Shown here piece after piece: positions 13,914 to 30,016 of a stretch of 64,000 nt of DNA; the stretch's first letter is position 1; each line of letters opens with the position of its first letter. The translations under genes and the position numbers were made by a program. Source of the stretch: Patescibacteria group bacterium (lineage in GTDB: Bacteria > Patescibacteriota > JACPGU01). A model generated the notes under the pieces. The model did not search any database. It saw only the letters and a list, made by a program, of their open reading frames with translations, and had not been told where the DNA came from. The stretch is from assembly GCA_041675145.1 (NCBI GenBank), contig JBAYUK010000002.1:152530-216529 (forward strand). The letters are read 5' to 3'.

Positions 13914-13957
13914 CTATAGTTATTACATCGGCTGAGAAATAACGCTCAAGCTCTAAC

Positions 13958-15730
13958 CTAAGTTATTCTAACCTTACTTGCTTCATATAGTTCTCTAAAT
14001 AGGCCGCCATTCCTCTTTAGTTTTTCAAATGGACCGTTCTCAATAATGCATCCATCGCTGAGTACTATAATGGTATCGAATGAGTCGAGCATGGAATATT
14101 TGTGTGTTACATAGAGTAGGGTAAGGTCTGGGTATGCCTTCATGATATTTCCAACGACTTCTCGTTCAGTCTTTGGATCAAGGCTGGCAGTTGCCTCGTC
14201 GAGGATCAAGACGGGGTGATTTTGGAAAAGGGCACGTGCTATACCAATACGCTGTCGCTCTCCGCCAGAGATATTTAACGAACCTTCAAATAGCTGTTCG
14301 TCTACTCCCCTTGGTAATTGATTGATAAATTCCCCAAGACAGCAGATTCTTAGTAGCTCGCTTAGTTCTCCATCACTAGGGGACTCTGAGCTTGACGAGA
14401 TGTTTTCTCGTATGGTACCTCGGAATAGTTGCACTTCCTGCGGAACTATGCTAAAAACATCAACAATATCTTTTCCGTTTAGTTTGCGATACTCAATGTT
14501 ATTGATCGTAACCGATCCTTGGTAATCGGTAATTGCTTTTAATATTACATCGAGTAGGGTTGATTTTCCGCCTCCAGTATGTCCGACAATAGCAATCTTC
14601 TCCTTTTCTTTTATTGTGAAACTAGCGTTGGTTAGATTTTCTCGCTCGTCACGAGAGACTCCTACATTAGACAGAGCAAGCTTTTTAAAACGATCCTTGA
14701 GTAGACCTGTTTTTACTAGAGATTGTCCTTCAAGGGGTATAGCAATCTCTTCGTTGAAGCGCTGGAGTGCCGTCGCTCTTTCAGAGAAACTTTCCAAGTA
14801 GCCCACCAGGGTGCCTATCTGCCCCGATAGTTTACCAACGAAGGCAAGAACAACGGTCATAGTTCCGATGGTGAAGTTTCCGTTCATAACATTCGTCACA
14901 CAGAAAATAAATACCAGGATCATAGTCACTTGTTCTAGTTGTCCATTGTTGTACCATTTGCGTAAGCTGCGTCGAATTACTTCGGTACGTTTTTTATATG
15001 ATTCCTCTATTTTTTCTGCGATATCGGCTTGTTGTTTGGCAAATAAGTTAAGATAGAAGACCGTCTTGAAGTTGTTCAAAAATTCGACAATTCCACCCGT
15101 TAGAGCTTCTTCTTTCTTTGACCATTCTATTCTGGCCTTTTCTTCTCTTCTTCCAAATACGATAACATTTACTATCGAGAGTCCTGAGGTTATAAGGAAA
15201 ATAACCAAAATAAGTGGCTTAATAAATGCAGTAGACATCAGAATACCTATCACTGATCCAACAGAGCTTAAGTAGCGATGGAGGATATCGTCAGTCAGAC
15301 GATATATGCTGTCATATGCAGAATCAATAATCTTTAAAAACACCCCGCGATTTTTTAGTTTAAAGAAATCGATCGGAGCATTTTCGAATAATCGGATCGC
15401 GTCGTTTCTGAAGTCTCGGCCAACTTTGGCTGCGATATTGAGACATTTGGATACTGTAATAATGCTTATTGCGGGAGAGATAAACAAGAACACTACATAT
15501 ATTACCAATAGTGTGTAGAGTTCTCTGGAACTGAAATCTCCGGTAGCTAACGCATCAATAATAGCACCGAAAATAATTGGAGTAGCTATTCCAATACCAA
15601 CGAGAATAGTTTGAATAAAAAACCAAAACCAATAGCTCGGATAGCGATTTATATATCGAATGGTGAGCCTGAGGGCGTATAGGTCGTTTTTTGTCATGAT
15701 TATTTGGATTGTATCATAAGATACCCCCAT
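13958..15730 (-). CDS. ABC exporter, fused permease/ATPase (MsbA-like)
   Basis: Walker A GHTGGGKST, signature LSGGERQRIGIARAL, Walker B ILDEATASLD; six N-terminal TM helices. Confidence 0.9.
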   Translation of the reverse strand: MGVSYDTIQIIMTKNDLYALRLTIRYINRYPSYWFWFFIQTILVGIGIATPIIFGAIIDALATGDFSSRELYTLLVIYVVFLFISPAISIITVSKCLNIAAKVGRDFRNDAIRLFENAPIDFFKLKNRGVFLKIIDSAYDSIYRLTDDILHRYLSSVGSVIGILMSTAFIKPLILVIFLITSGLSIVNVIVFGRREEKARIEWSKKEEALTGGIVEFLNNFKTVFYLNLFAKQQADIAEKIEESYKKRTEVIRRSLRKWYNNGQLEQVTMILVFIFCVTNVMNGNFTIGTMTVVLAFVGKLSGQIGTLVGYLESFSERATALQRFNEEIAIPLEGQSLVKTGLLKDRFKKLALSNVGVSRDERENLTNASFTIKEKEKIAIVGHTGGGKSTLLDVILKAITDYQGSVTINNIEYRKLNGKDIVDVFSIVPQEVQLFRGTIRENISSSSESPSDGELSELLRICCLGEFINQLPRGVDEQLFEGSLNISGGERQRIGIARALFQNHPVLILDEATASLDPKTEREVVGNIMKAYPDLTLLYVTHKYSMLDSFDTIIVLSDGCIIENGPFEKLKRNGGLFRELYEASKVRIT

Positions 15731-15763
15731 TTTTAGTATCCTTTATGATATAATGCACACATT

Positions 15764-16840
15764 ATGGCAATCATTATTTCAAAAAACGGCAAGGATGCGA
15801 AAAAAGTAGATAAGTCTACTTTTGATAGAGAAGACTATCTCCAGCAGTATATTTATGACAATCCGGAAAGCATACCGCTTTATGAGATCAGAGAAGATAT
15901 ACGGATGGTGATTCTAGCTCGCGAGTTTAATACAAATAGTGGTCCTATTGATGCTATTGGATTTGATAAAGACGGAGAAATATACATTGTTGAAACAAAA
16001 CTCTACAAGAATCCAGACAAGAGGACAGTTGTCGCTCAAGCACTAGATTATGGTGCTGCCCTCTGGAGACACGCCAACGATTTTAATGTATTTATCGATA
16101 CACTGAATGCATATACGAGCAAGCATTTCCAGCAAAGCGTACAAGAAAAGTTGCAGAATTTCTATGAGATCTCAGAAGATGAATCGTTAAAGATAGTCGA
16201 AAAAGTTCGAACAAATCTCAACGACGGCATATTTCATTTTGTAGTACTCATGGATCAGCTGAGCGATAGACTCAAAGACCTGGTTGTATATGTGAACCAA
16301 AACAGTCAATTTGATATCTATGCAGTCGAACTCGAATATTATCGTCATGAAGAACATGAAATTATTATTCCAAAGATCTTTGGTGCAGAGGTGAAAAAAG
16401 ACATCAAGGTATCTACCTCAAATAGCGCTCGCAAAAGATGGAGTGAAGACGAACTTCTGAATGCCGCAAAAAGCACATTATCTTCTGAGGGATATGCCGC
16501 CTTTGAAAAGTTGTATGTGTTTTCAAAGGAGCATGCGGATAATGTTAGTTTTGGCACTGGTACATCTTCGGGATCATTTAGTCCTATTTTTAGCAGTGTT
16601 TGCCCACGCTCTCTTTTTACACTTCGCACTAACGGCACACTGAGTCTTAACTTCCAATGGATTAATGGCTACGATGGAGCAGAGGAATTCCGCAGTCTGT
16701 ATTTTGATAAGATGAGGCAAATAGGGTTGGACTTGTTGCCTGCTGATATTGAGAAGTACCCAAATTTTTCATTAGACCAATGGCTGCAATACTCTGACAA
16801 TATCCTCGCCGTGTTGAGTGATATTACGAGGTTAAAATAG
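15764..16840 (+). CDS. PD-(D/E)xK nuclease, RecB-family-like
   Basis: PIDAIGFDKDGEIYIVETK (D..D/E-x-K) followed by QALDY (QxxxY motif). Confidence 0.5.
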   Translation: MAIIISKNGKDAKKVDKSTFDREDYLQQYIYDNPESIPLYEIREDIRMVILAREFNTNSGPIDAIGFDKDGEIYIVETKLYKNPDKRTVVAQALDYGAALWRHANDFNVFIDTLNAYTSKHFQQSVQEKLQNFYEISEDESLKIVEKVRTNLNDGIFHFVVLMDQLSDRLKDLVVYVNQNSQFDIYAVELEYYRHEEHEIIIPKIFGAEVKKDIKVSTSNSARKRWSEDELLNAAKSTLSSEGYAAFEKLYVFSKEHADNVSFGTGTSSGSFSPIFSSVCPRSLFTLRTNGTLSLNFQWINGYDGAEEFRSLYFDKMRQIGLDLLPADIEKYPNFSLDQWLQYSDNILAVLSDITRLK

Positions 16841-16907
16841 TTAACTATCAGGACAGTACCCGACCAATAATGGTCGGGATTGTTACATACACCAAGAGCT
16901 TCACACC

Positions 16908-17819
16908 ATGCTAATTATATTTGTAGTTTTTCTCCAGTCTCTATTGTTCGCTATCTTTAATCTAAATATCCGTAAACTTGAGGAGCAAGGGGTTTCTGCC
17001 CATACCATTGCCGGGCTACAACGGTACGCAGTTATCCCGTCAGCCATGCTTTTGCTAGTAACATATAAGCATGAATATCTCTTGATTCTATTACGAAATC
17101 CCGAGTCTTTTTGGTGGATAGCAGGTATCGCATTTTTTTGGGGTATCGCTCAATATATTGGATATACTGTTATTAATTCAGCAAGCTCTCTTTCTATAGT
17201 AAGTACATTTAGTTCGTTAATAGGAATTCCTGTTATGGTGGCAATGGGCGTGTTAATTAATAATGACTATCCAAACCCTTTAATTATTGTTGCTTTGATG
17301 TTGTTGGTTGTGGCAATTATCATCAAGCCTACTCAACATAATGAAAATAAGCTCCATCTTCTCAAATATAGTTTAATTATGGTTATTAGTCTTGTGTTCA
17401 CGAGCAATGTTGGTCATGCGTTAGACGGGGCTCTCTACAAGAATCTTCTTTATGTACTTGATTCGAGAGCGGTGCTCTTTGGTATCTCGGTTTATACGTT
17501 TGTAACTTCGGCAACATTGGGCGTGATATATCTTTTACCGATATTTAGGAAACCATCAAAAGAAGAACAAGCACTAGTTAAAAAACACTTTTTGGTAGCA
17601 TATTCTATACCTGTTTTTTGGTTTATTGCATCAATTCCAGAAGGATACTCATTTGCAAATCTACCATTATTTACCTTGAGCGCGCTCGGTGCGTTTGGTT
17701 TCCTGATCAAGATGTGTTCTGACCTTACAAATAAACGTCTTGCCTGGAGTTGGCGCACCGCTTTATTCATTGCAATTATTATTGCGAGTATTGTTTTCTC
17801 AGCTCTTTCTTTGCAATAA
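16908..17819 (+). CDS. polytopic membrane protein (about 10 TM), function unknown
   Basis: Hydrophobicity pattern only. Confidence 0.45.
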   Translation: MLIIFVVFLQSLLFAIFNLNIRKLEEQGVSAHTIAGLQRYAVIPSAMLLLVTYKHEYLLILLRNPESFWWIAGIAFFWGIAQYIGYTVINSASSLSIVSTFSSLIGIPVMVAMGVLINNDYPNPLIIVALMLLVVAIIIKPTQHNENKLHLLKYSLIMVISLVFTSNVGHALDGALYKNLLYVLDSRAVLFGISVYTFVTSATLGVIYLLPIFRKPSKEEQALVKKHFLVAYSIPVFWFIASIPEGYSFANLPLFTLSALGAFGFLIKMCSDLTNKRLAWSWRTALFIAIIIASIVFSALSLQ

Positions 17820-17919
17820 CTAATTTTTAATAGACCGAGAACTGCCAGTTACTCCTGGCAGCAGACCGAAAGGTCTATTCCGCCAGGTTAGAAATCGTTC
17901 GAGCCCGAGACGGATCGAA

Positions 17920-17960
17920 CACATAAAACACGCTACAATTAGCGTGTTTTATGTTAAAAT
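17920..17960 (+). promoter_or_regulatory. conserved hairpin (acataaaacacgc-N8-gcgtgttttatgt) + extended -10 TGtTAAAAT; ATG of downstream gene 7 nt after the -10 (leaderless)
   Basis: Same stem as 12874, 29145 and 29974; the -10 ends at 17960 and the ATG is at 17967. Confidence 0.6.
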
Positions 17961-17966
17961 AGAATC

Positions 17967-18440
17967 ATGGAGCCATCAAAATCTCAAAGAAAATACGAAG
18001 AACTTCAACGATCCTGTGCCAGGATAGAGGATCTCTATAAGGGTTTGATTATAAATAATGAAGGGCAGGACACTCTTCAATCACCAAAAGATATCTTACT
18101 GAATTTCTTTAGGGTTTGTTATGAGCTGAAAGAAGCTTTAAAAAGAGATCCTACTCTACCTATAGAATTTAAGGATGGGGTCGAGAAGTTTTGGAAAACT
18201 AATAGATATGCTGCGCTTAGCCTTGATGTTGCCAATCAGGAAAAACATATTACTCTTGGCAGTAATAATAAGTCAGGCCATAGGATTGGTAAGATTAATA
18301 CCCAGATACATTCATTATCACCCGACGGAAAGCCTGATCATACTAGAGTAACTATTGAGATAGATGGTGTGGCACAGGATGGTCTAGATCTGGCTAAGAA
18401 AGTTTTACTGGCTTGGAAGGAACTATATGAAAAGATATAG
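17967..18440 (+). CDS. hypothetical protein (first gene of a two-gene cassette)
   Basis: ORF; the stop overlaps the next start. Confidence 0.5.
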   Translation: MEPSKSQRKYEELQRSCARIEDLYKGLIINNEGQDTLQSPKDILLNFFRVCYELKEALKRDPTLPIEFKDGVEKFWKTNRYAALSLDVANQEKHITLGSNNKSGHRIGKINTQIHSLSPDGKPDHTRVTIEIDGVAQDGLDLAKKVLLAWKELYEKI

Positions 18441-19242
18441 AGTATCAAACTTTTATATAAACACAGAAGGAAATCTGCTAAGAAATTTACCCCAAGGCTT
18501 GGGGCCAGATGATGTGAATTACCAATCTTTTGTTGAAAGATATGGAAAAAGGGATTTTGATCAAAAATTGCAACGATATCTAAGCATTGAGAATCCAGTA
18601 CTTTCTGTAGTACAGGATCACATCCCTTTATTAGAAGAGATTAATAACTCATATGTAGCTGGAAATTTTTATTCATGTTTAACGGCCGCATGTTGTCTTG
18701 GAGAGAGAATATTTAATGATGTATTCTTTGCCATAAACGGCGATCATAAATCTTCTGATTGGTATAGAAAATACTGGAATAAGGGGGTAATACAGAACTG
18801 GCCAGATGGAATTAGTATGTTACATGAATGGAAGGTTATAGATGAAGAAACAAGAAAGAAGTATCTACTGCTCTATAAATTGCGAACCTATTCGGTTCAC
18901 TTTCAGAAAAGTGAACAGGACTTCGAGAAGATGTCGTTTGAGGCTATCGAGATAATTAATTGTATCGTCAGAAGAATATTTGGTATGAATGAGTATAGAA
19001 AGGATATACTTATTCATTTCGAAGTTCCAGGAGAGATATTCATAAGAAAAGGAGCTGAGTTGCTGCCTATAGTAAAAGCGTTTTATATACCCGCATCCCA
19101 CAAGTTGGGATATATGTATAAGGTTGAGTCTACTGCAAATCCGGGCCAATATCAGATCACAGATGACAACGAATACGAAAGCAAAGAAATTACGGACGAA
19201 GAATTTGTAGTTTTAAGGAATAACTTCGTTAGTAATCCTTAG
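18427..19242 (+). CDS. hypothetical protein (second gene of the cassette)
   Basis: ORF; 3' end convergent with and overlapping the recombinase stop. Confidence 0.5.
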   Translation: MKRYRVSNFYINTEGNLLRNLPQGLGPDDVNYQSFVERYGKRDFDQKLQRYLSIENPVLSVVQDHIPLLEEINNSYVAGNFYSCLTAACCLGERIFNDVFFAINGDHKSSDWYRKYWNKGVIQNWPDGISMLHEWKVIDEETRKKYLLLYKLRTYSVHFQKSEQDFEKMSFEAIEIINCIVRRIFGMNEYRKDILIHFEVPGEIFIRKGAELLPIVKAFYIPASHKLGYMYKVESTANPGQYQITDDNEYESKEITDEEFVVLRNNFVSNP

Positions 19243-20567
19243 GATATTCTGAGTATTTCATCCTCTAGTATTATTTTGTTCTTAAAGTTCTTCAATAGCT
19301 CTCGTTTTTCAGCTAGCATACCTTCTTTCAGAATGTACTTCGCATAGTTCTTGATATCTATTTCTGACACATCTACTTTCTTTTGTTTTTCATTATTTCC
19401 CAACACATGTGCTTGAAAGTTTCCGTATCGTTTGAGCTCATGTTTTACGCGTTCGTAAATACCCAGCTCGTTCATATCAATCTGGTCAATAATCTTTATT
19501 AACTCGCTGATAAGGTTAGTCTCATTGATGCTATTGCTGCAGCTCTTGTCTCTGCTTTTCGTGCAGGCATAGTAAATATGCTTATTGAACGACCCATTGA
19601 TCAGTTTCTTATACTTCTCATTAGCGGATATACCTGAGCCACATTTACCGCAGGTAAGTAATCGCGTGAAGGCGAATTCTTTTCCTGTTACTGCTGAGTT
19701 ATATCTTTCCTTGAGACACTTTTGTGCCTCGTCAAAGAGTTCTTTAGATATTAGTGGAGTATGTGCTCCCTGATACCAATTGCCACTTTTCTTCGGGTAT
19801 TCAAAGCTACCGTAGTAGAAGTGATTATTGAGGATGGTGTAGATGTTGCTGAGTGACAAATGTTTTCCGCTACTGGCTCTGAAGTCTTTTTCAAACTTTA
19901 ACCAGGCGTACATCTGTCTCCCGCTTATTCCCTGATACACGACTCGCTCAAATATCTCTCGAATAACTGGTGCTCGTTCCGGATCGAGGACAGGATCGCA
20001 CTTTTTCATTCGGTTAGGGTTGTTGAGGTACCCAGTAGGAGCTCGTGAAGGCCACATACCCATCTCACAGCGGGTTCTTAAACCTCGCTTCACATTCACT
20101 CCCTTGTTATCATTCTCGAGCTTGGCCTGAGAACCGAGGATCATGAGGAGAAACTTCTCATTCGGATTGTTAGAGAACTTTTGTCCGTAGGTTCTAATCT
20201 CAATGATCTTCTTCTGATCCATCATGTCGACGATGGAGCCGAGGTCTCCTGCGTTACGGCTCAAGCGGTCAGGCGCCCAGGTGAGAATAGAATTGTATGT
20301 ACCATTCCGAATACCGGCTATCATTTCGTTAAAGACCGGGCGTTGCCCGGTCTCTTTCGCTGAGTGACTTTCTCGCAAGATGTCGATAATCTCAATACCT
20401 TCTCGTTGGGCCAGGACCATCATCTCCTTGATTTGTGAATCAATGGACAGCGCCTGGCGCTCGTCTGACTCGGTTGACTTCCTCGCATAGAGGCAGTACT
20501 TGGTTTCTTCTGCTATTACGGTACTTGCTTGTGTTTGCATCATATCTAATGAATGACGCGAACCCAC
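19239..20567 (-). CDS. large serine recombinase (integrase)
   Basis: Resolvase catalytic domain YARKSTESDERQ...PDRLSRN, recombinase domain, C-terminal zinc-ribbon CGKCGSG...YYAC. Confidence 0.9.
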   Translation of the reverse strand: MGSRHSLDMMQTQASTVIAEETKYCLYARKSTESDERQALSIDSQIKEMMVLAQREGIEIIDILRESHSAKETGQRPVFNEMIAGIRNGTYNSILTWAPDRLSRNAGDLGSIVDMMDQKKIIEIRTYGQKFSNNPNEKFLLMILGSQAKLENDNKGVNVKRGLRTRCEMGMWPSRAPTGYLNNPNRMKKCDPVLDPERAPVIREIFERVVYQGISGRQMYAWLKFEKDFRASSGKHLSLSNIYTILNNHFYYGSFEYPKKSGNWYQGAHTPLISKELFDEAQKCLKERYNSAVTGKEFAFTRLLTCGKCGSGISANEKYKKLINGSFNKHIYYACTKSRDKSCSNSINETNLISELIKIIDQIDMNELGIYERVKHELKRYGNFQAHVLGNNEKQKKVDVSEIDIKNYAKYILKEGMLAEKRELLKNFKNKIILEDEILRIS

Positions 20568-20908
20568 CCAGTAGTCTAGGCTTATTATTCGTTGCTAATA
20601 AAAGCTCTTCGCAAGGCTCCAGATGTAAGCTAAGATACGTGGACTTTTGCCGTATTCGTGGTAAAATGACTTAACAATTGAGTAGTGCCTAACCCCGAAG
20701 TTTTCGCTTCGGATATGGCGCAAAACCCCCAACCAAGATACTGAACCCCGTGTTCAGCAACTCTTGGTTGGGTCATATCGGGAAACTGATATGGAGTCGC
20801 AAGACTCGGCTGGCGCGGGGCTTAGTGTATCTAAGCGTTGTTGCCAGCTACTTATTATAGAGAGCTGGATTTTTTTATTATTAACGCACAATACTAATAA
20901 CTACATAT

Positions 20909-21370
20909 ATGAGCAATACAACAAACGATAAAGAGTTTAAGGGGTATAACGGCACGCTAATACTCACCAATACAGGAATTATCATAAAGCGTGGCACGAA
21001 GGGATTCCTGCTCGGTGGCTTCCAGATGAGAGGAGACAAAACGATACCGTATAGCAGTATTGTGGCAGTACAGTTTAAGAAGGCTGGGTTATCTGCCGGT
21101 TATATCCAGTTTACTCTCAAGGGAGGATCAGAGGCAAAAGGCGGTTTGCTCCAGTCAACCAGAGATGAGAACAGTATTAATTTCCACTCCAATAGAAACA
21201 AAGAGTTTATTGAAGCAAAGGAGCTTATCGAACAGCGCATTGGTTCAGAAGGATCATCTGCTAGACCAAGCGAACTCGATGAGCTTACAAAACTCGCTAC
21301 TCTGAAAGACAAAGGCATTATTAATCAGAAAGAGTTTGACGCTAAGAAAAAACAGCTCCTTGGCTTATAA
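20909..21370 (+). CDS. PH-like (DUF4429-type) domain protein with C-terminal SHOCT domain
   Basis: C-terminal LKDKGIINQKEFDAKKKQLL matches the SHOCT pattern. Confidence 0.55.
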   Translation: MSNTTNDKEFKGYNGTLILTNTGIIIKRGTKGFLLGGFQMRGDKTIPYSSIVAVQFKKAGLSAGYIQFTLKGGSEAKGGLLQSTRDENSINFHSNRNKEFIEAKELIEQRIGSEGSSARPSELDELTKLATLKDKGIINQKEFDAKKKQLLGL

Positions 21371-21392
21371 TAATCATTAGTAACTCACCACA

Positions 21393-22055
21393 ATGGCATT
21401 TATCAATGGCTTCTTTTCGTTCCTATTCTTTATTTCGTTTATTTTATTGATTGTGGGGCTAATTGCTCCTAAGAAAGTAAGTAGGCTTTTGAAGAAAGAT
21501 TGGGACCGCAAGATGATCGCAAAAACTATCGGTCTGGTCTCGTTGGCATCCTTCGTTATTGCAGTGGCTACTACGCCCGCTGTTCCGGTATCTCCAAAAG
21601 CTACTAAAACGTCTACAGTTACTGAAACCACTGAGCAGGTTCAGGCAATAAATGTAGAGGAGCCACAAGAAATTGTGTCAGAGGAAGTTAAAGAAGCGGC
21701 CAAGGATTCAGCAGTAAGTGAAACTAAGCCAGCAACATCATCGCCGACTCCTCAAAAGACCACCAACTCGAGTCCTGCTCAAACGACCACTTCTCCTACG
21801 CCAGCGACATCGAGCCCTACACCAACTCCACAACCAGCACCAACAACCCCCGCGCCTACTCAACCAGCACCACAACCAGCACCAGTTCCATCTGGTCACA
21901 CGTTTTATACCAGTTCGCACTATAGCGCAAAATTATATTACTGTGATACAGATGAAGGGTGGAGAGGCCTTTCACCAAGTTATCTCAAATCTTTTCCTAG
22001 CGCCGAAGCATTATTGAAAGTATACCCAAGAACACTTCACGAGCCGTGTAAATAA
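21393..22055 (+). CDS. secreted/anchored Pro-Thr-rich protein with conserved Cys-containing C-terminal domain (paralog of the next gene)
   Basis: N-terminal TM, PT-rich linker, C-terminal HTFYTSSHYSAKLYYCDTDEGWRGLSPSYLKSFPSAEALLKVYPRTLHEPCK. Confidence 0.6.
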   Translation: MAFINGFFSFLFFISFILLIVGLIAPKKVSRLLKKDWDRKMIAKTIGLVSLASFVIAVATTPAVPVSPKATKTSTVTETTEQVQAINVEEPQEIVSEEVKEAAKDSAVSETKPATSSPTPQKTTNSSPAQTTTSPTPATSSPTPTPQPAPTTPAPTQPAPQPAPVPSGHTFYTSSHYSAKLYYCDTDEGWRGLSPSYLKSFPSAEALLKVYPRTLHEPCK

Positions 22056-22058
22056 AGT

Positions 22059-23189
22059 ATGGAAAGTAGCGCTTTAACCCTTTTATTCTTCTTACTGTTT
22101 ATAGCTTCAGTTGTATTACTGATTGCTGGATTAATATGGCCGCCGATTCTCAAGCGACTTATTAAGTCTGTTCCCACTAGAAAAGCAATAGCCTTATTCT
22201 TCTCGGGGCTAATAGTGACTTCTTTCATTGGAGTAGCGGTCTTCGTTCCGCATAGTAATAGTAGAATAACTGCTGATACTGTTTCAGAGGAAAAAACAAA
22301 CATAGAGCAAGAAGCTCAAGGCGTACCTGTTAGCACCCAAGACGGTGTCGGTGCTGGCACTATTGAAGAAGTTACTGCCGAGAAAACGGTGCGGTCACTT
22401 CCTGATCAAGCTTCTAGTAGCACAAAAACAGCGACACCGACGCCCGCGCCGAGCCAACCAACTTCAGCACCCGCCAAGCCCGCGCCGAGCCAAGTTCCAG
22501 TAGTTGCACCACCTGCACCCACACCAGCCACGACCACGTACTTCTCAGTCGTTTCCGTAACTGACGGAGATACTTTTAAAGTATCTATAGATGGGAAGAC
22601 TGATACTATACGTATTATCGGTGTAGATACTCCAGAAACTGTTGATCCAAGAAAACCCGTGCAATGTTTTGGGGTAGAAGCTTCAAGCAGAGCCAAGGCT
22701 TTACTTACTGGAAAGAAAGTAAGATTGGAGTCGGATAGTGTCTCGGGTGATCGAGACAAGTATAACCGCTTGCTTCGTTATGTGTGGCTCGAGGATGGTA
22801 CTTTTTTTAACGAGACCATGATATCCGAAGGATACGCCTTCGAATACACTTATCAAAGTCAGGCATATGTGTACCAGTCTGAATTCAAGAAAGCTGAACA
22901 GAACGCAAAGAATTCAAAGCTAGGACTTTGGGCGGATAATGCCTGTAATCAGACAACGCAATCTGCCGTAGTGCCACCTGTAGTTTCGCCTCCCGCAACA
23001 GCTCAGCCCGTACCTACTACAACATCTTCGCATGTATTTTATACGAGCTCATATCATACTGCTCAATATTACTATTGCGATACTGACAACGGATGGAAGG
23101 GTCTTTCGCCGAGTTATCTTAAATCATTCCCAAGTGCTGAGGCGTTACTGAAGGTATACTCGAGAACACTTCACGAACCCTGTAAGTAG
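22059..23189 (+). CDS. secreted thermonuclease (staphylococcal nuclease fold) with the same C-terminal domain
   Basis: SNase core DGDTFKV...IRIIGVDTPE...RLLRYVW...GYA; C-terminal HVFYTSSYHTAQYYYCDTDNGWKGLSPSYLKSFPSAEALLKVYSRTLHEPCK. Confidence 0.8.
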   Translation: MESSALTLLFFLLFIASVVLLIAGLIWPPILKRLIKSVPTRKAIALFFSGLIVTSFIGVAVFVPHSNSRITADTVSEEKTNIEQEAQGVPVSTQDGVGAGTIEEVTAEKTVRSLPDQASSSTKTATPTPAPSQPTSAPAKPAPSQVPVVAPPAPTPATTTYFSVVSVTDGDTFKVSIDGKTDTIRIIGVDTPETVDPRKPVQCFGVEASSRAKALLTGKKVRLESDSVSGDRDKYNRLLRYVWLEDGTFFNETMISEGYAFEYTYQSQAYVYQSEFKKAEQNAKNSKLGLWADNACNQTTQSAVVPPVVSPPATAQPVPTTTSSHVFYTSSYHTAQYYYCDTDNGWKGLSPSYLKSFPSAEALLKVYSRTLHEPCK

Positions 23190-23636
23190 CTATTCTGATA
23201 TGCCCTTTTCCTCTTCAGCCATCTCCTTATGAAGCTTTAGTGCCCATTCTGCGATCGTCTCCGGTGGCGTTTCATTGATGATTATGGAGTGTACTGGAAC
23301 GAATGACTCAACATCTTTTGTAGGTACTTTGGGTGTATACTCCGGGTCTCTGCTCTTAAGCTGAAATACGATAGCCTGCATATTGCCTTCTTTTATCTTT
23401 TGCGTTAAGGCAGACTTAGCAAGATCGTTTAATGCAGCTCTTCCGAGTTTACGCGCCTTGGTTACTTCATCTGCAAGATCCATATCTTCTTCGATCCAGC
23501 GATAGAATGTTGCACGGGAGACGCCTGCCTTTTTGCATACTATGGATATATTGTCGAGTTCACTTAACAAGGCAAGAATCTCTTTCTTGTTTTTAGCAAT
23601 TCTTTTTTGGTCAGTTTTAGCTTTCTTGTCTTCCAT
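23190..23636 (-). CDS. HTH protein resembling phage terminase small subunit
   Basis: CKKAGVSRATFYRWIEED helix-turn-helix near the N-terminus; located next to two DNA methyltransferases as in phage packaging modules. Confidence 0.45.
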   Translation of the reverse strand: MEDKKAKTDQKRIAKNKKEILALLSELDNISIVCKKAGVSRATFYRWIEEDMDLADEVTKARKLGRAALNDLAKSALTQKIKEGNMQAIVFQLKSRDPEYTPKVPTKDVESFVPVHSIIINETPPETIAEWALKLHKEMAEEEKGISE

Positions 23637-24381
23637 GAGCTTTTTTACCCGTTAACTTTTCCCACCGTTGAACGATCGTAGCGCAGTACTCCAAATCCTG
23701 CTCGACCATAACACACTTCCGCTTCGTATGCTCGCACGCAACTATTGTGGTTCCTGATCCACCGAATGGGTCGTACACCACATCTCCCACCTCAGTGCAG
23801 TTTAGAATGAGCTTACGAATGAGGCCGACTGGCTTCATGGTGGGGTGGAGCTTGCTCTGTTGTGGCTTGGGCGCAAACAACACCGACTTATCTTTACTAT
23901 GCTTGAAGTCATGCGTACCATACCAGCCATAGAGGATTAGTTCGTGTTGCGGGAGATAGTCAAGTCGACCAATGACAGGTTTGTCTTTGACCCAAATAAG
24001 CAACTGCGCTACTTTGATCTTCATATCTACGCAGGCTTGGCGCAGGGCAAAGACCATCTTGTCTGAATTGAAGATGTAGATACTATTCTTCTTCGTGAGA
24101 TACGGCAGCGCGGGACCAAGCCACCCTTGCGTAAAGGTCGCGTACTGCGCATCTGACATATGCCCGTCATTTTGGATATCTTTATCTTTGGATACTTTTT
24201 GTAAATCTCGCTTGCTGGCGACATAGTCGATACCGTACGGCGGATCCGTGATAATAGCGTTGATCTTGCCATCTTTCAGGATAGCCTTCAGATCTAAGGT
24301 ACTGGCATCCCCACAGACTAAGGTGTGGTCACCGAGCTGGATAATATCCCCGGACTTAATTGAGTTTGATGGCTGTGTCAT
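23617..24381 (-). CDS. DNA (N6-adenine/N4-cytosine) methyltransferase, beta class
   Basis: Motif IV IITDPPYGIDY before motif I VYDPFGGSGTT; start placed at MTQPS (24381) with GGGAGAA upstream rather than the longer ORF from 24438. Confidence 0.85.
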   Translation of the reverse strand: MTQPSNSIKSGDIIQLGDHTLVCGDASTLDLKAILKDGKINAIITDPPYGIDYVASKRDLQKVSKDKDIQNDGHMSDAQYATFTQGWLGPALPYLTKKNSIYIFNSDKMVFALRQACVDMKIKVAQLLIWVKDKPVIGRLDYLPQHELILYGWYGTHDFKHSKDKSVLFAPKPQQSKLHPTMKPVGLIRKLILNCTEVGDVVYDPFGGSGTTIVACEHTKRKCVMVEQDLEYCATIVQRWEKLTGKKAHGRQES

Positions 24382-25630
24382 TGGTAAGGTTCTCCCAGCG
24401 GTTAATAATAAGTTGGCAAAAAACAGGACTTTGCTCAATCAGATACGCGACACGCTTTAGTTGTTCGCAGGCGAGCAAAGTTGAGCCACTCCCACCGAAT
24501 AGATCGAGTACCGTATCGCCGATCTTGGTACAGCGCATCAGCGGTCGCTCGTGTAAAGTGAGTGGCTTCTGGGTGGGGTGATTGTAGTCGTCACTCGCAT
24601 CTCGCTTAACCAACCAAATGTCGATCAGGTCGGCGACATCATCAAGAGTGGCATTGCCAATGCCGACTTCAGTATTTAAGATCTCCGCAAACTTGGTATG
24701 TTTATCCGACAAGTACGGTTTTCCCACCGTGCCATAGACACACGGTTCATACAACTTCGAGAAGGCTATCTGCGGAGTCGGATTAATACCGTTCTTAATC
24801 CACAAACACGTCCGTTGGTATTTGATTCCCAGCTCCTCGTATACCGATTGCACCATCCCGACGTAGCGCTCATCACACCACCAGAATAGATGCGTATCTT
24901 TTTGCGCAACACCCAGGGCGTTACCTAAAGTCTGCTTCGTAAAGAGTCGGAACGCATCGTCGGACAAGGAATCGTTAACTGCGCCACCATAGTTAGCTTT
25001 GCCGCCAATCCCTTTGTTATAGTCGAGGCTAATATTGTATGGGCTGTCGCAATACACCATATGTACTCGTGTTTCGCCAACTAACTTTTGTACAGCTTCC
25101 ATGTCGGTGCTATCTCCGCACAGTAACCGGTGATTGCCCAGCTGAAACAGGTCACCGGACTGGATGTCTGTAGTTAGCGCTTTCTCGATCTCTTCCTCCT
25201 CATTGAAGCTGTCGTCTTCCAATTCCAGAACATCGTCCCAGATACTGGAAAGATCGGTATCGTCAAAGCCGATATCGAGTAAGAATTCGGTATCGAATTC
25301 CTTGAGGAGATCAAAATTCCACGAACCCGTATTGCGGTTGGAGCGCAGTAAATATTCGTCGAATTCTTTTTGATCAAGTAATCGACTCGGTACTCGCACA
25401 TCGATTAGTTCTTCGCCACGACCCAGTTCACGCAGGATAAAGAGTCGTTGGTGACCAGCAATCACTGTGTTATCTAAGTTGATCGCTGGAATTTCAACGA
25501 GGTCAAACTTCGTAATACTTTTTGTCAGATCCTTTTTCTGCTGCGCGCTCAAGGTACGCGGGTTCTTGGAATAGGGCACCAAATCTGAGACTTTACGTTT
25601 TTCTGTGTGCCACTGAATAGATTTTTTCAT
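24356..25630 (-). CDS. ParB-N-like domain fused to DNA methyltransferase
   Basis: N-terminal ParB-like nuclease domain (...IAGHQRL...), CDSPYNISLDY (DPPY-type) and LDLFGGSGSTL; start at MKKSIQW (25630) preceded by AGGAGA SD; the longer ORF start at 25675 lies inside an upstream terminator hairpin. Confidence 0.85.
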   Translation of the reverse strand: MKKSIQWHTEKRKVSDLVPYSKNPRTLSAQQKKDLTKSITKFDLVEIPAINLDNTVIAGHQRLFILRELGRGEELIDVRVPSRLLDQKEFDEYLLRSNRNTGSWNFDLLKEFDTEFLLDIGFDDTDLSSIWDDVLELEDDSFNEEEEIEKALTTDIQSGDLFQLGNHRLLCGDSTDMEAVQKLVGETRVHMVYCDSPYNISLDYNKGIGGKANYGGAVNDSLSDDAFRLFTKQTLGNALGVAQKDTHLFWWCDERYVGMVQSVYEELGIKYQRTCLWIKNGINPTPQIAFSKLYEPCVYGTVGKPYLSDKHTKFAEILNTEVGIGNATLDDVADLIDIWLVKRDASDDYNHPTQKPLTLHERPLMRCTKIGDTVLDLFGGSGSTLLACEQLKRVAYLIEQSPVFCQLIINRWENLTNDTAIKLN

Positions 25631-25654
25631 AATATATTCTCCTAAATTTACCAA

Positions 25655-25730
25655 TAAAAAATGCCCACTCTGCAAAATAACAAACCAGGAAGATTTACTC
25701 CCTAAATTTATTTTTCTGCAAAGTGGGCAC
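25655..25730 (-). terminator. large-loop intrinsic terminator for the 117-aa gene
   Basis: Inverted arms atgcccactctgcaaaata / ttttctgcaaagtgggcac followed on the minus strand by TTTTTTATT. Confidence 0.5.
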
Positions 25731-25805
25731 GACCGAGGCGAAGCCTCTCTGGTGTCTTACGACACCTTCTATCACCCGAAGGTGAAATACGTGATACTCA
25801 CTGTG

Positions 25806-26159
25806 TTATCTACTGCTCGATTGTAAAAATGCTGTCAACTCGTTAGGGCGATGTGCCTTCAGAAATTCTATCGCATCTTTTCCAAGAAATACCGGCGCGC
25901 CACCCTCCGGCATACGAATACGAAGTTTTTTACCTTGTTTCTTTGCCAAAGCATGGGCACGTTCAATCTCAGGATTATGGAAAATAACTCGAACCGTATC
26001 TTTACTACCCTCGATCTGCTTGATGTCCGTACTATACGCACGCTGTTCTGTCTTGGTATTGATCGATCGCTCAATAACGCGACCAACAGATTTTGGTTTG
26101 CGCGGCAGCTGAACATTCAGCTCGAGGTCATAAATGTATACATCGATAAACTCTTCCAT
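25806..26159 (-). CDS. hypothetical protein, divergent from the repressor gene
   Basis: ORF only. Confidence 0.45.
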   Translation of the reverse strand: MEEFIDVYIYDLELNVQLPRKPKSVGRVIERSINTKTEQRAYSTDIKQIEGSKDTVRVIFHNPEIERAHALAKKQGKKLRIRMPEGGAPVFLGKDAIEFLKAHRPNELTAFLQSSSR

Positions 26160-26267
26160 ATCCGTATACTAGCACGAAGGGAAAGTGGGTGTCAAGCGTG
26201 AAACATATGTTACGGCTCTTTACGAAAAAGTTATTGAAAGTTCAAAAAAGTATGTTATTATTCAAGT

Positions 26268-26918
26268 ATGAATCCTATCCAAAATGAATTGATGACCCTA
26301 GCCAAAGACCACGATCTCGGTAAAATGAGTTATCGTCAGATAGCAAAACTGATCGGAAAAGAAGGCAGGCCTCAGCTAGTGAAGCATCATCTTGAACAAC
26401 TTGATAGGCAGGGATTAATGCAGGTCAATCTGAAAGAAAAGGTAATTCGCCTGGTCAAGAAAGGGTTCAATAAAACTAAAACAGAAAATTCGTTTTACTC
26501 GTTACCAATTGTTGGTTCGGCGAATTGTGGTCCAGCTACCATATTCGCTGACGAGAGCGTCCAGGGATATTTGAGAGTTTCAGCAAATGTGTTACCTCGA
26601 AAAAAACAGGACCTGTATGTGCTCGTAGCAGATGGCGGATCAATGGATCGGGCTTCTCTTAAAAAAGGAGGTCCTACTATTGAGGATGGCGATTTCGTGG
26701 TTGTAGATAGCTCAAAAGTCAGTCCAAAAGATGGTGAAGTTGTGGTGGCGGTTATTGATCGCATGGCGACTATTAAGCGCTACAAAAAAGATCCAAAGAA
26801 TCACCGCATTATCCTTCAGCCCGAATCAACAGAGAACTATTTCCCAATCATTGTGCAGCAAGGTGATAACTTTCAAGTCAGCGGAACAGTCATCGACATC
26901 ATCAAGAAAGCAAAGTAA
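26268..26918 (+). CDS. LexA/CI-like repressor (winged HTH + S24 peptidase domain)
   Basis: N-terminal HTH YRQIAKLIGK...; C-terminal VADGGSMD (Ser nucleophile) and ...ATIKRY (Lys). Confidence 0.75.
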   Translation: MNPIQNELMTLAKDHDLGKMSYRQIAKLIGKEGRPQLVKHHLEQLDRQGLMQVNLKEKVIRLVKKGFNKTKTENSFYSLPIVGSANCGPATIFADESVQGYLRVSANVLPRKKQDLYVLVADGGSMDRASLKKGGPTIEDGDFVVVDSSKVSPKDGEVVVAVIDRMATIKRYKKDPKNHRIILQPESTENYFPIIVQQGDNFQVSGTVIDIIKKAK

Positions 26919-26966
26919 TTTTGCCTATGGTCGATATTATTAGTAGTGATTAGAAAGGTGGTATTC

Positions 26967-27107
26967 ATGACTAACACTAAAAAGGTGAAGTTGCCAAAAA
27001 GTGCTGTGACCGGACGTATCGTAACATCGGCATATGCAAAGGCACATCCAAACACAACCGTTTTCCAAACAGTTGTGAAGAAGCAAGCATCAGGTAAGAA
27101 AAAATAA
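26967..27107 (+). CDS. small basic protein (46 aa), hypothetical
   Basis: AAAGGTGG SD-like sequence 7 nt upstream of ATG; not in the ORF track because it is under 60 aa. Confidence 0.3.
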   Translation: MTNTKKVKLPKSAVTGRIVTSAYAKAHPNTTVFQTVVKKQASGKKK

Positions 27108-27198
27108 ACAGGCTGAATGGGAAAAGTTATCGAGTAGTACGCGTTTGAGAAGATTGTTTCTTTATCTTCAATTACGGCCGAAAGGTATGCCTGCCCAT

Positions 27199-27228
27199 CA
27201 GAAATCGATCTGCAAGGATCGATTTCTG
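27199..27228 (+). promoter_or_regulatory. perfect 12-bp inverted repeat CAGAAATCGATC-N6-GATCGATTTCTG, candidate operator
   Basis: 35 nt upstream of the 27263 gene start, no T-tract, contains two GATC sites. Confidence 0.4.
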
Positions 27229-27262
27229 ATTCAAATCATATCTACCCTATAAATATTAACTT

Positions 27263-28210
27263 ATGGCAAACAAGAAGTTTTTAGAAGAATATCCACTATA
27301 CAAGAAGTATGAAACCGCATGGAATCAGGAAGAGCACGACTATTCATGGATGACCCTCGGTAAGCTTCCCGAACCAGCGATCCATATGTATTGCACTGTT
27401 TGTGATTCTGATCAAACATTCAATATGCGTAACGAGTATTATGACGATAGCTATATGGGGCTTGAGAGGAATAATACAGAATTTCAAAAGTATGCCGAGG
27501 AGGTGAAGTTAGTATATTGTGAGAAAATTCCTGCAGCAGGAAAGGTGCTCCGGAGTGACTATTTGTGTTCGGCTTGCGGTAAAGGGAGGATGATATTCCT
27601 TATTTATTTCTTTAGGGAAAAGATTGGTTCAAGATCTGTTCTATGCATGATGAAGGTTGGCCAAACTCCTCCTTGGAGCATAGTAGTAAATAAAGAGATG
27701 GAGAAGCTTTTGGGTAGTAACGCAGAGCACTATAAGAAAGGGTTGATTTGTGAATCACAGTCTTACGGTATTGGTGCATACGCCTATTTCAGAAGAATCA
27801 CCGAGACTATTATTGATGAACTATTGGACTCTATTTCGGATTTGTTAGAAGGTAAAGAAAAGGAGCTATATGCTGATGCGCTTGCAAAAACGAAAGCCAC
27901 TCGAGTGACTCAAGATAAGATAGATTTAGTTAAACACCTGTTGCCAGTTTCTTTACGACCTGACGGTCTTAATCCGCTTGATATTCTTCATTCTGCGCTG
28001 AGTCAAGGGCTACACGTAGAAGACGATGAGGTATGTCTAGAACAAGCAGAGGCCATAAAGAAGGTATTGGTCTTTCTAGTCAGCCAGATTATTAAGAAGA
28101 AAGATGAAGCCAAGGAATTTACTAAAGGCATGAGAGAGATACTAAACAAGAAGTCGAAACCTACCGTTGTTGAGGATGGGAAAGAAAAAAAGGCAGATGA
28201 ATCAGAATAG
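27263..28210 (+). CDS. hypothetical protein with N-terminal Cys4 zinc-ribbon-like motif
   Basis: CTVCDSD...CSACGKG; lysine-rich C-terminus. Confidence 0.5.
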   Translation: MANKKFLEEYPLYKKYETAWNQEEHDYSWMTLGKLPEPAIHMYCTVCDSDQTFNMRNEYYDDSYMGLERNNTEFQKYAEEVKLVYCEKIPAAGKVLRSDYLCSACGKGRMIFLIYFFREKIGSRSVLCMMKVGQTPPWSIVVNKEMEKLLGSNAEHYKKGLICESQSYGIGAYAYFRRITETIIDELLDSISDLLEGKEKELYADALAKTKATRVTQDKIDLVKHLLPVSLRPDGLNPLDILHSALSQGLHVEDDEVCLEQAEAIKKVLVFLVSQIIKKKDEAKEFTKGMREILNKKSKPTVVEDGKEKKADESE

Positions 28211-28291
28211 TTATTATGTGGCTATAATAAGCTATTTAAGTCAATAATTACTTACTCTCAAAAATGAGTCAGAGGTGTCTCATTTGTCTCA

Positions 28292-28492
28292 TTTACCCTA
28301 GACCGAGACCCCTCAGATTACATAACTTAAAACCTACTGGAAAAGCCCTCAACTGACCCGATTATGGAGGTTATAGACCGAGACTGCCAGCTTTCCAGGG
28401 CACCCGACCGAGAGGGGTCAGGAGCCCTACTAGGCTACAGAGTTTCTCTAAAGTCTAGATAAGAAAAACCATCCGAAAGGATGGTTTTTCTT
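28292..28492 (+). repeat. copy C of the island repeat family
   Basis: Full 5' and 3' modules; 3' module identical to copy E over 45 nt; terminator ccatccgaaaggatgg + T-tract. Confidence 0.85.
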
Positions 28493-28517
28493 ATGGCATT
28501 CAGGGCTATATGGGCAA

Positions 28518-28982
28518 TTAAGCTATCAACATTCTGTAGTGATCTTCCCAAAGCACATAGTCTTTGTCTCTACCTTCTCGTGGTAGGTCATTGATTTCAC
28601 CTTTAGTTAGGAATATAAGCTCGTCGTGATCTGGACTGAGCTGTATCTCCGGCTCTTTATCTAGTTCTATAGTAAAAGCAAACTTTGTTTTATGCTTATT
28701 GGTCTCGATATTATGGAATTCAAATATGCCGAGCGGTTGAAGCTTTTCAGGTAAAACTACGATACCTGCTTCTTCAAATAGCTCTCGTACAGCTGCATGC
28801 GTCAGCTCCTCAGATTCATCGACTGAACCACCAGGTATCTCGAGTATTCCAGAACATGAGTCTGTAGCCGATCGTTTTAATAAAAGGAACCTGTCTTGCC
28901 ATTGCACTCGTATGCACGCACCGATGTTGTGACCAGCACTAATTGCTGATTCTAATTTTTCTTTAAAATTGTTACCCGACAT
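28518..28982 (-). CDS. NUDIX hydrolase
   Basis: Nudix box GGSVDESEELTHAAVRELFEEAGI. Confidence 0.85.
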   Translation of the reverse strand: MSGNNFKEKLESAISAGHNIGACIRVQWQDRFLLLKRSATDSCSGILEIPGGSVDESEELTHAAVRELFEEAGIVVLPEKLQPLGIFEFHNIETNKHKTKFAFTIELDKEPEIQLSPDHDELIFLTKGEINDLPREGRDKDYVLWEDHYRMLIA

Positions 28983-29024: not shown

Positions 29025-29145
29025 TTTTGTATCACTCTATACCGAGATCCTTCAGATTGCGTAACTTACAACCTACCGGAAAAGCCTTCGACTGACCCGG
29101 TTGTGAAATTTCTGGAGCGAGGTAGCCCACCCGACCGTGAGGGGT
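29025..29145 (+). repeat. copy D of the island repeat family (divergent, 3' module truncated and fused to the hairpin/-10 element)
   Basis: taccgagatccttcagattgcgtaacttacaacctaccggaaaagccttcgactgacccggttgtg ... cccacccgaccgtgaggggttagtgcc. Confidence 0.7.
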
Positions 29146-29181
29146 TAGTGCCTCATAAAACACGCATAAAGGCGTGTTTTA
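29145..29181 (+). promoter_or_regulatory. conserved hairpin (cataaaacacgc-N5-gcgtgttttatg) + extended -10 TGgTATAGT
   Basis: Same 12-bp stem as 12874, 17920 and 29974. Confidence 0.6.
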
Positions 29182-29220
29182 TGGTATAGTAGTACTATAA
29201 GTTATACAACTCAACCTTAT

Positions 29221-29904: not shown

Positions 29905-29973
29905 CCTATTAACCTAGAAATACGAGACGTAATTCAAGGTGCCTAAGGTACTATATTGATAGGGTTAAGGATT

Positions 29974-30010
29974 CATAAAACACGCCAGAAAGCGTGTTTT
30001 ATGATATAAT
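29974..30010 (+). promoter_or_regulatory. conserved hairpin + extended -10 TGaTATAAT; ATG 7 nt downstream (leaderless)
   Basis: Stem cataaaacacgc/gcgtgttttatg; the -10 ends at 30010 and the ATG(MNISIRD) is at 30017. Confidence 0.6.
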
Positions 30011-30016
30011 GTGCCT

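Follow-up and report, generated by a model that had tools for sequence, protein, structure and literature searches.

What kind of element is formed by a small group of phage-like genes in a Patescibacteria (candidate phyla radiation, CPR) genome that includes an integrase, a repressor and a terminase-like gene, with no gene for building a virion? The genes in question lie at approximately 19.24–28.25 kb of a 64,000-nucleotide stretch of contig JBAYUK010000002.1 (assembly GCA_041675145.1), hereafter the window, and had been outlined in a preliminary description as a phage-satellite-like or degraded prophage module. The suspected CPR lineage was correct, as proteins identical to the recombinase, to the small terminase (TerS) and to a 271-residue protein in the flank are named "Patescibacteria group bacterium" at NCBI. 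Our analyses showed that the locus is one copy of a family of compact, phage-derived integrative elements that is widespread in Patescibacteria and apparently undescribed. For the copy in the window we lean, with some reserve, toward its being a helper-dependent, satellite-like island, a variant without a large terminase (TerL) gene. The most concrete new fact is the link between these islands and the LOOT RNA.

The element was found to comprise the features below, given with their coordinates in the window. Proteins were assigned to families by profile scans with Pfam, PHROGs and PADLOC, and RNA by Rfam cmscan; numbers after family names are E-values.

19239–20567, minus strand: large serine recombinase, 442 residues (Pfam Resolvase PF00239, 4.8e-21; integrase family phrog_95, 6e-64)
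20640–20667, plus strand: promoter-like site from a promoter scan, TGGACT-16-TAAAAT with TG, just upstream of LOOT
20686–20807, plus strand: LOOT RNA (Rfam RF03000; 88.7 bits against a gathering score of 46.4, E = 1.7e-15)
20844–20876, plus strand: hairpin CCAGCT...AGCTGG followed by a T-run, read from the sequence, between LOOT and the first cargo gene
20909–21370, plus strand: cargo gene 1, DUF4429 and SHOCT protein (SHOCT, 6.8e-8; DUF4429, 7.9e-7; phrog_2700, 2.9e-19)
21393–22055, plus strand: cargo gene 2, membrane-anchored Pro/Thr-rich protein with no family match in Pfam or PHROG
22059–23189, plus strand: cargo gene 3, membrane-anchored staphylococcal-type nuclease (SNase) (Pfam SNase, 7.6e-27; nuclease family phrog_20876, 6e-32)
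23190–23636, minus strand: TerS-like helix-turn-helix (HTH) protein, 148 residues (six PHROG TerS families, best 1.7e-8)
23617–24381, minus strand: second, orphan N6/N4 DNA methyltransferase (Pfam N6_N4_Mtase, 4e-33; phrog_498, 3.9e-67)
24356–25630, minus strand: ParB-N domain fused to an N6/N4 DNA methyltransferase (phrog_498, 1.2e-85; ParB-like phrog_620, 1.3e-20; N6_N4_Mtase, 4.9e-26)
25806–26159, minus strand: 117-residue protein gene, first of the leftward operon, in a Cro/antirepressor-like position, with no family match in Pfam, PHROG or PADLOC
26160–26267, no strand: divergent control region between the 117-residue protein gene and the repressor gene
26268–26918, plus strand: S24 autopeptidase repressor of the LexA/CI type, 216 residues (Peptidase_S24 PF00717, 6.4e-20; repressor family phrog_4, 2.7e-20)
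26967–28210, plus strand: two genes downstream of the repressor, for proteins of 46 and 315 residues (the latter phrog_25239, function unknown, 4e-40)

Each gene of the preliminary inventory was an intact open reading frame (ORF) at its given place in the ORF listing and the Pfam and PHROG scans, and the calls of a large serine recombinase, of a ParB-methyltransferase fusion with a second methyltransferase, and of an S24 repressor divergent from a small gene all agreed with the family matches. The ORFs of the element are all intact and the genes of the leftward operon overlap. That inventory was incomplete, as the LOOT RNA and the organization of the genes behind it as a cargo slot had been overlooked.

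Relatives of the window recombinase numbered at least 8000 proteins at E<1e-40 and were present in at least 595 species-level genomes, almost all being metagenome-assembled genomes of Patescibacteria. A set of 159 recombinase loci (80 from genomes and 79 from metagenomes; individual loci bear L numbers below) was then compared after ORF calling and clustering. The order that recurred was S24 repressor (minus strand), small gene, ParB-methyltransferase, second methyltransferase, TerS and a ~495-residue protein identified as TerL (all plus), cargo and LOOT (both minus) and the recombinase (plus), in which the repressor, small gene, second methyltransferase, TerL, cargo and LOOT are not always present. 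Order and orientation were constant wherever the components occurred, and roughly a third of the ~160 loci had the module, with ParB-methyltransferase in 56 of the 159, TerS in 41, TerL in 34 and S24 in 15. The distance from the start of the ParB-methyltransferase gene to the end of the recombinase gene had a median of 4.6 kb (range 3.8–11.3 kb), and the recombinase directly followed TerL in 17 of 35 cases. With relatives in so many genomes and the module in about a third of the loci, the expectation that such an element would be unusual in CPR bacteria did not hold. The window copy has every part of the family layout except TerL.

The closest relative, L167, has a recombinase 66% identical to that of the window and was seen on 24 contigs. 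Its ParB-methyltransferase, TerS and TerL genes, three-gene restriction-modification (RM)-like cargo and recombinase are bordered by a uracil-DNA glycosylase gene on one side and by genes for FtsX, FtsE and a release factor on the other, and L167 is thus a compact island set among housekeeping genes. Flanking sequences differ between the loci of the family. No portal, capsid, tail or lysis gene was present in any related element examined, and the Pfam and PHROG scans likewise gave no structural or lysis hits in the ~9-kb window element, as the preliminary description had reported for portal, capsid and tail genes.

The identity of the 148-residue protein was addressed by several routes. The protein scored 26.4 bits against Pfam Sf6_terminase, just under the cut-off of 27, and among its family members 30 of 35 matched PF13022 (best 8e-12) and six matched Sf6_terminase; three also matched Phage_AlpA, and the HTH matches were generic. 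A word-indexed homologue search with the window TerS returned only the query itself. An exhaustive HMMER search yielded 2412 cluster representatives at E≤1e-3, and an alignment of 83 of these was used to build an AlphaFold (AF2) model (pLDDT 92.3), which has an N-terminal HTH at residues 30–50 and a long helix at residues 52–82. The top 14 matches of the model in the PDB were all either the Sf6 gp1 small terminase or the phBC6A51 protein 2ao9, with probabilities of up to 0.99, yet with E-values of 0.25–2.2 and TM-scores of ~0.4. The BFVD matches of the model were to proteins of Caudovirales, among them several with the name small terminase (E = 2.6e-4 and weaker), and the TerS profile placed Sf6 gp1 first among PDB sequences (E = 0.03). 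These profile and model matches, together with the TerL gene sited after TerS in the common order of 34 related loci, support the TerS identity predicted for this protein and argue against its being an unrelated HTH regulator, which, combined with flanking ORFs free of phage-related matches, the preliminary description had named as fatal to its proposal.

The absence of TerL from the window was also confirmed, as tblastn with 35 TerL relatives against all 64 kb gave a best E-value of 0.08 and no trace of a TerL pseudogene. TerS is thus without the neighbor that it has immediately downstream in relatives. Versions that keep TerS and have no TerL occur in ~16 other loci across different sub-lineages (e.g., L025, L038, L082). 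The nearest kin with the two-methyltransferase arrangement mostly have TerL (L020, L045, L078, L079), and the window copy has lost a gene that its closest kin kept.

The ~495-residue TerL proteins of the relatives are full-length terminases by profile, with both the ATPase and nuclease halves matched by phrog_38 (1.7e-73 over residues 12–471). They also matched the large terminases 8dgc and 4bij in the PDB (~4e-7) and are 23–29% identical to TerL of Mu-like and Bacillus phages. When IMG/VR was scanned with the TerL alignment for wider relatives, contigs whose TerL was at least 44% identical repeated the island layout, recombinase included. Those at 38–43% identity were true phages in which portal (phrog_2662, 1e-99 and 3e-107), head-morphogenesis and capsid genes (major head phrog_10, ~1e-27) come after the DNA-modification genes and TerL, in one orientation with them. 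The detection of structural genes in two of these (L189, L192) by the same method served as a control for their absence from the islands. Searches of IMG/VR with the window TerS and with the 315-residue protein alone gave no match.

The Caudoviricetes contigs (L187–L196; the module of L189 at 7099–21380 is an example) resemble the islands in having ParB-methyltransferase or Mom-like genes, a small gene and TerL in the same order. They differ in that portal, protease and major head genes follow TerL on the same strand and in having neither the serine recombinase nor LOOT. Judged by these two layouts, an island is the opening part of a phage late operon, severed behind TerL and linked to a serine integrase. 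The contigs are likely to represent the source lineage of the islands, and are possible candidates for their helpers.

The LOOT match covered the full length of the Rfam model (positions 1–121). The RNA is located between the recombinase and the cargo genes, 119 nt upstream of the recombinase start and divergent from it. Conserved sequence extends past the model on both sides, to approximately 20671–20832, and the 3' extension has the consensus CTGGYGGSGAGCTTTTTGTGT in related loci. The site at 20640–20667 is a predicted promoter that could drive LOOT and the cargo genes as a unit; a −10-like box followed by TAACAAYTGAATA is kept upstream of LOOT in most of 46 loci. The hairpin and T-run at 20844–20876 have the appearance of a terminator or attenuator, and the same structure is found in the closest LOOT relative (L025).

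A covariance model built from the window copy and rebuilt from 26 hits gave LOOT hits at 43 recombinase loci and at three IMG/VR loci of the island type, and none elsewhere in ~1 Mb of TerL-related viral contigs. Compensatory changes on both sides were present in 34 of 38 base pairs, none of 500 shuffles reached the observed covariation score, and 94.3% of cells were paired versus 32–44% when the partners were slid, although the alignment had been fitted to the model and hence leans towards the structure. Among the 81 loci with at least 6 kb of sequence upstream of the recombinase, LOOT was present in 25 and absent from 14 of those with the packaging module, and present in nine and absent from 33 of those without it (odds ratio 6.5, p = 1.3e-4). 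LOOT is a hallmark of the island family.

LOOT was sited between TerL and the recombinase, upstream of the ParB-methyltransferase gene, or after the recombinase. Whichever site it occupied, the gene next downstream was co-oriented in 36 of 43 loci, at a median distance of 70 nt. Of 75 genes in this cargo slot, 52 were singletons without a homologue in the other loci, and the recurrent ones encode an SNase, an OB-fold/Sie-like protein, a PDC-S11-type nuclease and a reverse transcriptase. We read LOOT, from the arrangement of the sequence, as a promoter-proximal RNA that heads the cargo slot, where it may act as an attenuator. The conserved 3' tail may be a simple terminator or may pair with helix P5 or the 5' leader; RNAalifold predicted 0 pairs, and inspection by eye did not single out any of these. 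Resemblance to RF03000 is strong, with a full-length match well above the gathering score and extensive covariation; the difference is that Rfam files LOOT as a stand-alone small RNA gene, whereas here it is promoter-proximal, extended beyond the model and placed ahead of a variable cargo slot. Our literature searches found no paper that describes the genetic context of LOOT.

A role for LOOT as a guide RNA for the recombinase was considered and judged unlikely, given that this enzyme has its full set of standard DNA-binding domains and that LOOT is missing from most recombinase loci. In addition to the Resolvase domain, the protein matches Recombinase PF07508 (2e-14) and Zn_ribbon_recom PF13408 (7e-7; 29.9 bits against a cut-off of 25.3), so that all three Pfam domains are above their cut-offs. 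The motif with the catalytic serine is YCLYARKST, and Ser31 and the surrounding motif were invariant in an alignment of 15 sequences.

SNase homologues are also found downstream of LOOT in L008, L025 and L031. The preliminary description had counted two nuclease paralogs in the window; an SNase domain is present in the product of 22059–23189 and absent from that of 21393–22055. The two proteins do share a transmembrane start, a Pro/Thr-rich linker and a C-terminal module of ~50 residues, and the 3' ends of their genes (21903–22054 and 23037–23188, repeat D5) are 74% identical as DNA. The module encoded by D5 contains Cys and ends both proteins (..YYCDTD.GW.GLSPSYLKSFPSAEALLKVY.RTLHEPCK).

The leftward operon (26159–23190, minus strand) consists of the genes for the 117-residue protein, the ParB-N methyltransferase, the second methyltransferase and the TerS-like protein. 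Pfam ParB_N was detected in the relatives L003 and L167. The counterpart of the 117-residue protein gene is a gene for 128–175 residues (cluster c8) at the same position in at least eight relatives, the member from L047 being 27% identical to the window protein. An imperfect inverted repeat of 23 nt (25662–25684 and 25707–25729, 83% complementary, 22 nt apart) is located just upstream of the ParB-methyltransferase start; it may form a regulatory hairpin, or be bound by a protein, between that gene and the 117-residue protein gene.

In the repressor the S24 domain covers residues 80–209 and the translation shows GGSM and IKRY motifs and a candidate Cys-Gly cleavage site (N-C-G); residues 1–79 had no match to a Pfam DNA-binding domain. 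An S24 homologue is divergent from the ParB-methyltransferase gene in 13–15 relatives. The two best promoter-like sites in the control region face apart (26195–26166, minus strand; 26234–26261, plus strand), each with 10 of 12 positions and TG, and no clear operator repeats were found in 26160–26267. A small ORF and a larger gene likewise follow the S24 gene in L038, L047 and L080, and the genes for the 46- and 315-residue proteins are probably the right-hand part of the element.

Phage-inducible chromosomal islands (PICIs), including the Staphylococcus aureus pathogenicity islands (SaPIs), have an integrase, a divergent master repressor, their own small terminase and accessory cargo, and are without capsid, tail and lysis genes. 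Of the known systems, these are the ones that the window element most resembles, being a small, integrated island of ~9 kb with a divergent repressor, its own TerS, cargo, and neither structural nor lysis genes. Its divergent regulatory pair is PICI-like in architecture only, and the TerS-only mode of the window copy parallels the redirection of helper packaging by SaPIs. It differs in that its integrase is a large serine recombinase, that of PICIs being a tyrosine recombinase, and in that no primase/Rep module of its own and no capsid-size genes were found. Further differences are the self-cleaving type of repressor, the ParB-methyltransferase pair, LOOT, the CPR host and, in most relatives, their own TerL.

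The capsid-forming islands (cfPICIs) carry TerS and TerL of phage origin plus capsid, portal and head-completion genes. The present family also encodes TerS and, in relatives, TerL, but capsid, portal and head-tail connector genes are absent from the window and from all the related elements examined. Satellites with serine recombinases are known, namely the Vibrio cholerae PLEs and module 3 of the marine VEIMEs (PMC9618062). These too are small islands with a serine integrase, some with TerS homologues, RM systems and defense cargo, and our islands are likened to them by recombinase type only. The islands differ in having no RepA-type replication or plasmid-like ParA/RepA genes that we could find, a core of ParB-methyltransferase, TerS and TerL, a host in another phylum and a structured RNA. 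The lack of a detected replication module also sets them apart from P4, PICIs and PLEs as a whole. Full-text searches found no paper combining Patescibacteria with a serine recombinase and a terminase, and only incidental mentions of Patescibacteria together with phage satellites, with no described satellite.

The gene content of the window element, with an integrase, a repressor, TerS and methyltransferases and no structural genes, agrees with the preliminary description in that the element is satellite-like and not a full prophage. On the reading toward which we lean, the window copy would be excised, depend on a helper and be packaged by it. In its favor, what the islands retain is precisely the set of genes for packaging specificity and DNA protection, these genes have been kept intact across many genomes, and the nearest phages carry the same module together with capsid genes. 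The serine recombinase would integrate and excise the element. The S24 repressor would silence the leftward operon until DNA damage or a helper phage triggered its self-cleavage or inactivation. The methyltransferases could then pre-protect the DNA of the element against the many restriction systems of CPR cells, and TerS would direct that DNA into helper capsids, working with a TerL encoded by the element itself in most relatives and with a helper TerL in the window copy. The helper may belong to the lineage of the closest phage relative, with its ParB/Mom-type modification genes, TerL, portal and major capsid module. In the integrated state the separate, conserved promoter would transcribe LOOT and read into the cargo, probably via a regulated terminator, and the cargo of the window copy (the DUF4429-SHOCT protein, the membrane protein and the membrane-anchored nuclease) would benefit or protect the host.

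We also entertain, more as speculation than as expectation, that the islands are the first CPR phage satellites and of a new design, consisting of TerS (usually with TerL), methyltransferases, a self-cleaving repressor and a serine integrase and lacking replication and capsid-remodelling genes, in which LOOT would be a cis-acting sensor or attenuator at the start of a readily exchanged cargo slot, turning genes for defense or host benefit on or off according to the state of the cell or of a helper infection.

Several observations weigh against a helper-dependent satellite. No helper phage was identified among the data examined, and no empty site, circular form, excision junction, encapsidated copy or second context was found. 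Searches for exact matches to the recombinase and to both flanking proteins showed that the only other assembly with the element has the same arrangement, though such searches are limited by the breaking of short-read contigs at host repeats. There was no near-identical copy in another context, and the metagenome scan contained no relative above 66% identity. Neither the ORFs of the element nor the conserved core matched a primase, helicase or Rep protein in Pfam, PHROGs or PADLOC. The likeness of TerS to solved structures is weak by E-value (0.03–0.25). Moreover, the same recombinase family adjoins type I RM systems without packaging genes in 15–18 loci, and 33 of the 81 well-covered loci have neither the packaging module nor LOOT. 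Lastly, a copy without TerL, unlike most of its two-methyltransferase kin, could be a disabled derivative.

This last point leads to the alternative that survives best, which we nevertheless judge unlikely, namely that the window copy is an immobilized remnant in which loss of TerL ended packaging and which has been kept because its methyltransferases, nuclease or repressor benefit the host. Loss of TerL without a pseudogene trace, its presence in the closest two-methyltransferase relatives, the identical arrangement in two assemblies with no variant context and the host-like G+C content of 26–28 kb would all fit such a remnant. Yet the remaining genes, including the recombinase, repressor and TerS, are intact and tightly packed. 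In addition, TerL-less versions with TerS have recurred independently in ~16 loci, which suggests a viable, SaPI-like TerS-only mode and not decay.

Somewhat less probable again is that the element is a recombinase-borne defense or anti-restriction island that is never packaged and is transferred by other routes, its HTH protein being a regulator or recombination directionality factor and the TerL-like ATPase-nuclease and ParB-methyltransferases of relatives acting in DNA modification or defense. The range of the recombinase family, which carries type I, type III-like and type ISP RM systems and other defense-like cargo, is consistent with this, as are the PADLOC candidates in the neighborhood (PDC-S11, 2.6e-16; PDC-S07, 3.6e-10), the generic HTH matches with Phage_AlpA among them for three family members, and the lack of a replication module and of a helper. 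It is opposed by the order ParB-methyltransferase, TerS, TerL, with which phage late operons canonically begin and which continues into portal and capsid genes in the nearest true phages, by the match of TerL as a terminase over both its halves, and by the fold of the HTH protein, which matched small terminases ahead of any regulator.

Finally, the phage-type integrase, CI-like repressor, methyltransferases, TerS and phage PHROG match of the 315-residue protein might suggest an ordinary temperate prophage that has been stripped of its structural genes in this genome. This is very improbable, since independent deletions would not converge on one architecture. Dozens of unrelated Patescibacteria genomes share the layout without structural genes, in 17 loci the recombinase comes directly after TerL, housekeeping genes border L167, and the window contains no fragment of a structural gene. 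The TerL, portal, capsid, tail and lysis genes of a complete temperate Caudoviricetes prophage are all absent, and the origin from a degraded prophage offered in the preliminary description is unlikely because dozens of genomes have this same truncated layout and the genes in it are intact.

A large part of bacterial diversity belongs to the Patescibacteria, whose mobile elements and relations with phages are barely known. If the helper-dependent satellite reading is correct, hyper-parasitism, with a satellite on a phage on an epibiont, would reach the smallest bacteria, and the islands would define a very small gene set that is sufficient, or believed so, to hijack a tailed phage. A family present in hundreds of species genomes would also place the orphan LOOT RNA in a host phylum and a genetic context, with roles that can be tested, and genome engineering could draw on its many diverse and compact serine integrases, which come with natural cargo slots. 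This slot, being variable, also resembles a defense-gene hotspot in organisms that are mostly without CRISPR.

The limits of the element were examined in relation to base composition and to its flanks, whose features are as follows.

17967–19242, plus strand: two-gene unit for proteins of 157 and 271 residues, tail-to-tail with the recombinase
28518–28982, minus strand: NUDIX gene (Pfam, 2e-16)
8508–8583, 10211–10419, 12274–12482, 28287–28495 and 29026–29127: five full or partial copies of an intergenic repeat of ~200 nt

The G+C content is 0.44–0.485 over 20–26 kb only, with flanks at ~0.36–0.41, and is already host-like at 26–28 kb. On the left, the stop codon of the 271-residue protein gene (18427–19242, plus strand) overlaps that of the convergent recombinase, and the gene is full length relative to 228 homologues. 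In two other CPR genomes, at L257 (6001–6858) and L261 (7001–7825), homologues also end against a convergent large serine recombinase, a few bases or one small ORF away, while those in L263 and L265, two of four other contexts examined, have no such recombinase. The three recombinases beside genes of this family are 57–63% identical and no closer to one another than to the rest of the recombinase family. One possibility is that the 3' end of the 271-residue gene family serves as a preferred attB, another that the gene is terminal cargo. No long inverted repeat was found at the ends of the element, and when the 500 nt downstream of the recombinases were compared all against all, no end motif was common to them.

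On the right, the boundary had been drawn at one copy of the ~200-nt repeat. The copy at 28287–28495 does lie just outside the right end, but it is a host repeat and not an att duplication. An att origin for the copies flanking 12.5–28.3 kb was rejected because there are five copies, of full length and not halves, which end in terminators, and one of them follows tRNA-Gln. All the copies are between tRNA-Gln(CTG), whose 3' end the first abuts, and 29.1 kb; each ends in a bidirectional terminator hairpin, and the repeat, which matches no Rfam family, is a host intergenic repeat. Host-type repeats occur at 17903–17961 and 28287–28495, with none between 19.2 and 28.28 kb, which fits the limits given in the preliminary description. 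The NUDIX gene, which had been listed as a member, probably does not belong to the element, as it lies past the host-type repeat and related elements have no equivalent gene.

Among the other loci of the recombinase family, L033, L057, L062, L069, L178, L183 and ~10 more have a recombinase 56–60% identical that adjoins a complete type I RM system (HsdM/S/R), and others adjoin type III-like or type ISP RM genes without packaging genes; the integrase appears indifferent to its cargo. The metagenomic contig L092 (Ga0172379_10009260, 1–12191), with ParB-methyltransferase, TerS, LOOT and recombinase genes, has identical ends of 113 nt that would allow a circle of 12.08 kb. We did not accept it as an excised circle, since host-like genes of metabolic and other types (Ldh_2, PNPOx, STAND ATPase) are also on it and the break recurs at the same position in a sister contig.

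A second repeat family in the window (12853–12911, 17903–17961, 29133–29191 and 29953–30011) consists of a perfect hairpin, CATAAAACACGC..GCGTGTTTTATG, followed by a TATAAT-like box. Each copy is directly upstream of a gene (four genes), and the family is probably a host terminator/promoter or operator module. The copies of the ~200-nt repeat each follow one or a few accessory genes, giving the variable region from 8.5 to 29 kb a cassette-like appearance. This region includes a NucS-like nuclease gene (15764–16840, plus strand) that matches the PADLOC candidate defense gene PDC-S11 (2.6e-16) and whose DNA is 70–72% identical to genes directly downstream of LOOT in L024 (580–1223) and L030 (5064–5711), which indicates that such cargo moves among Patescibacteria genomes. 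Near it are a mad3-like ABC ATPase gene (13958–15730) and a NUDIX gene that matches PDC-S07, and this neighborhood looks like a defense island.

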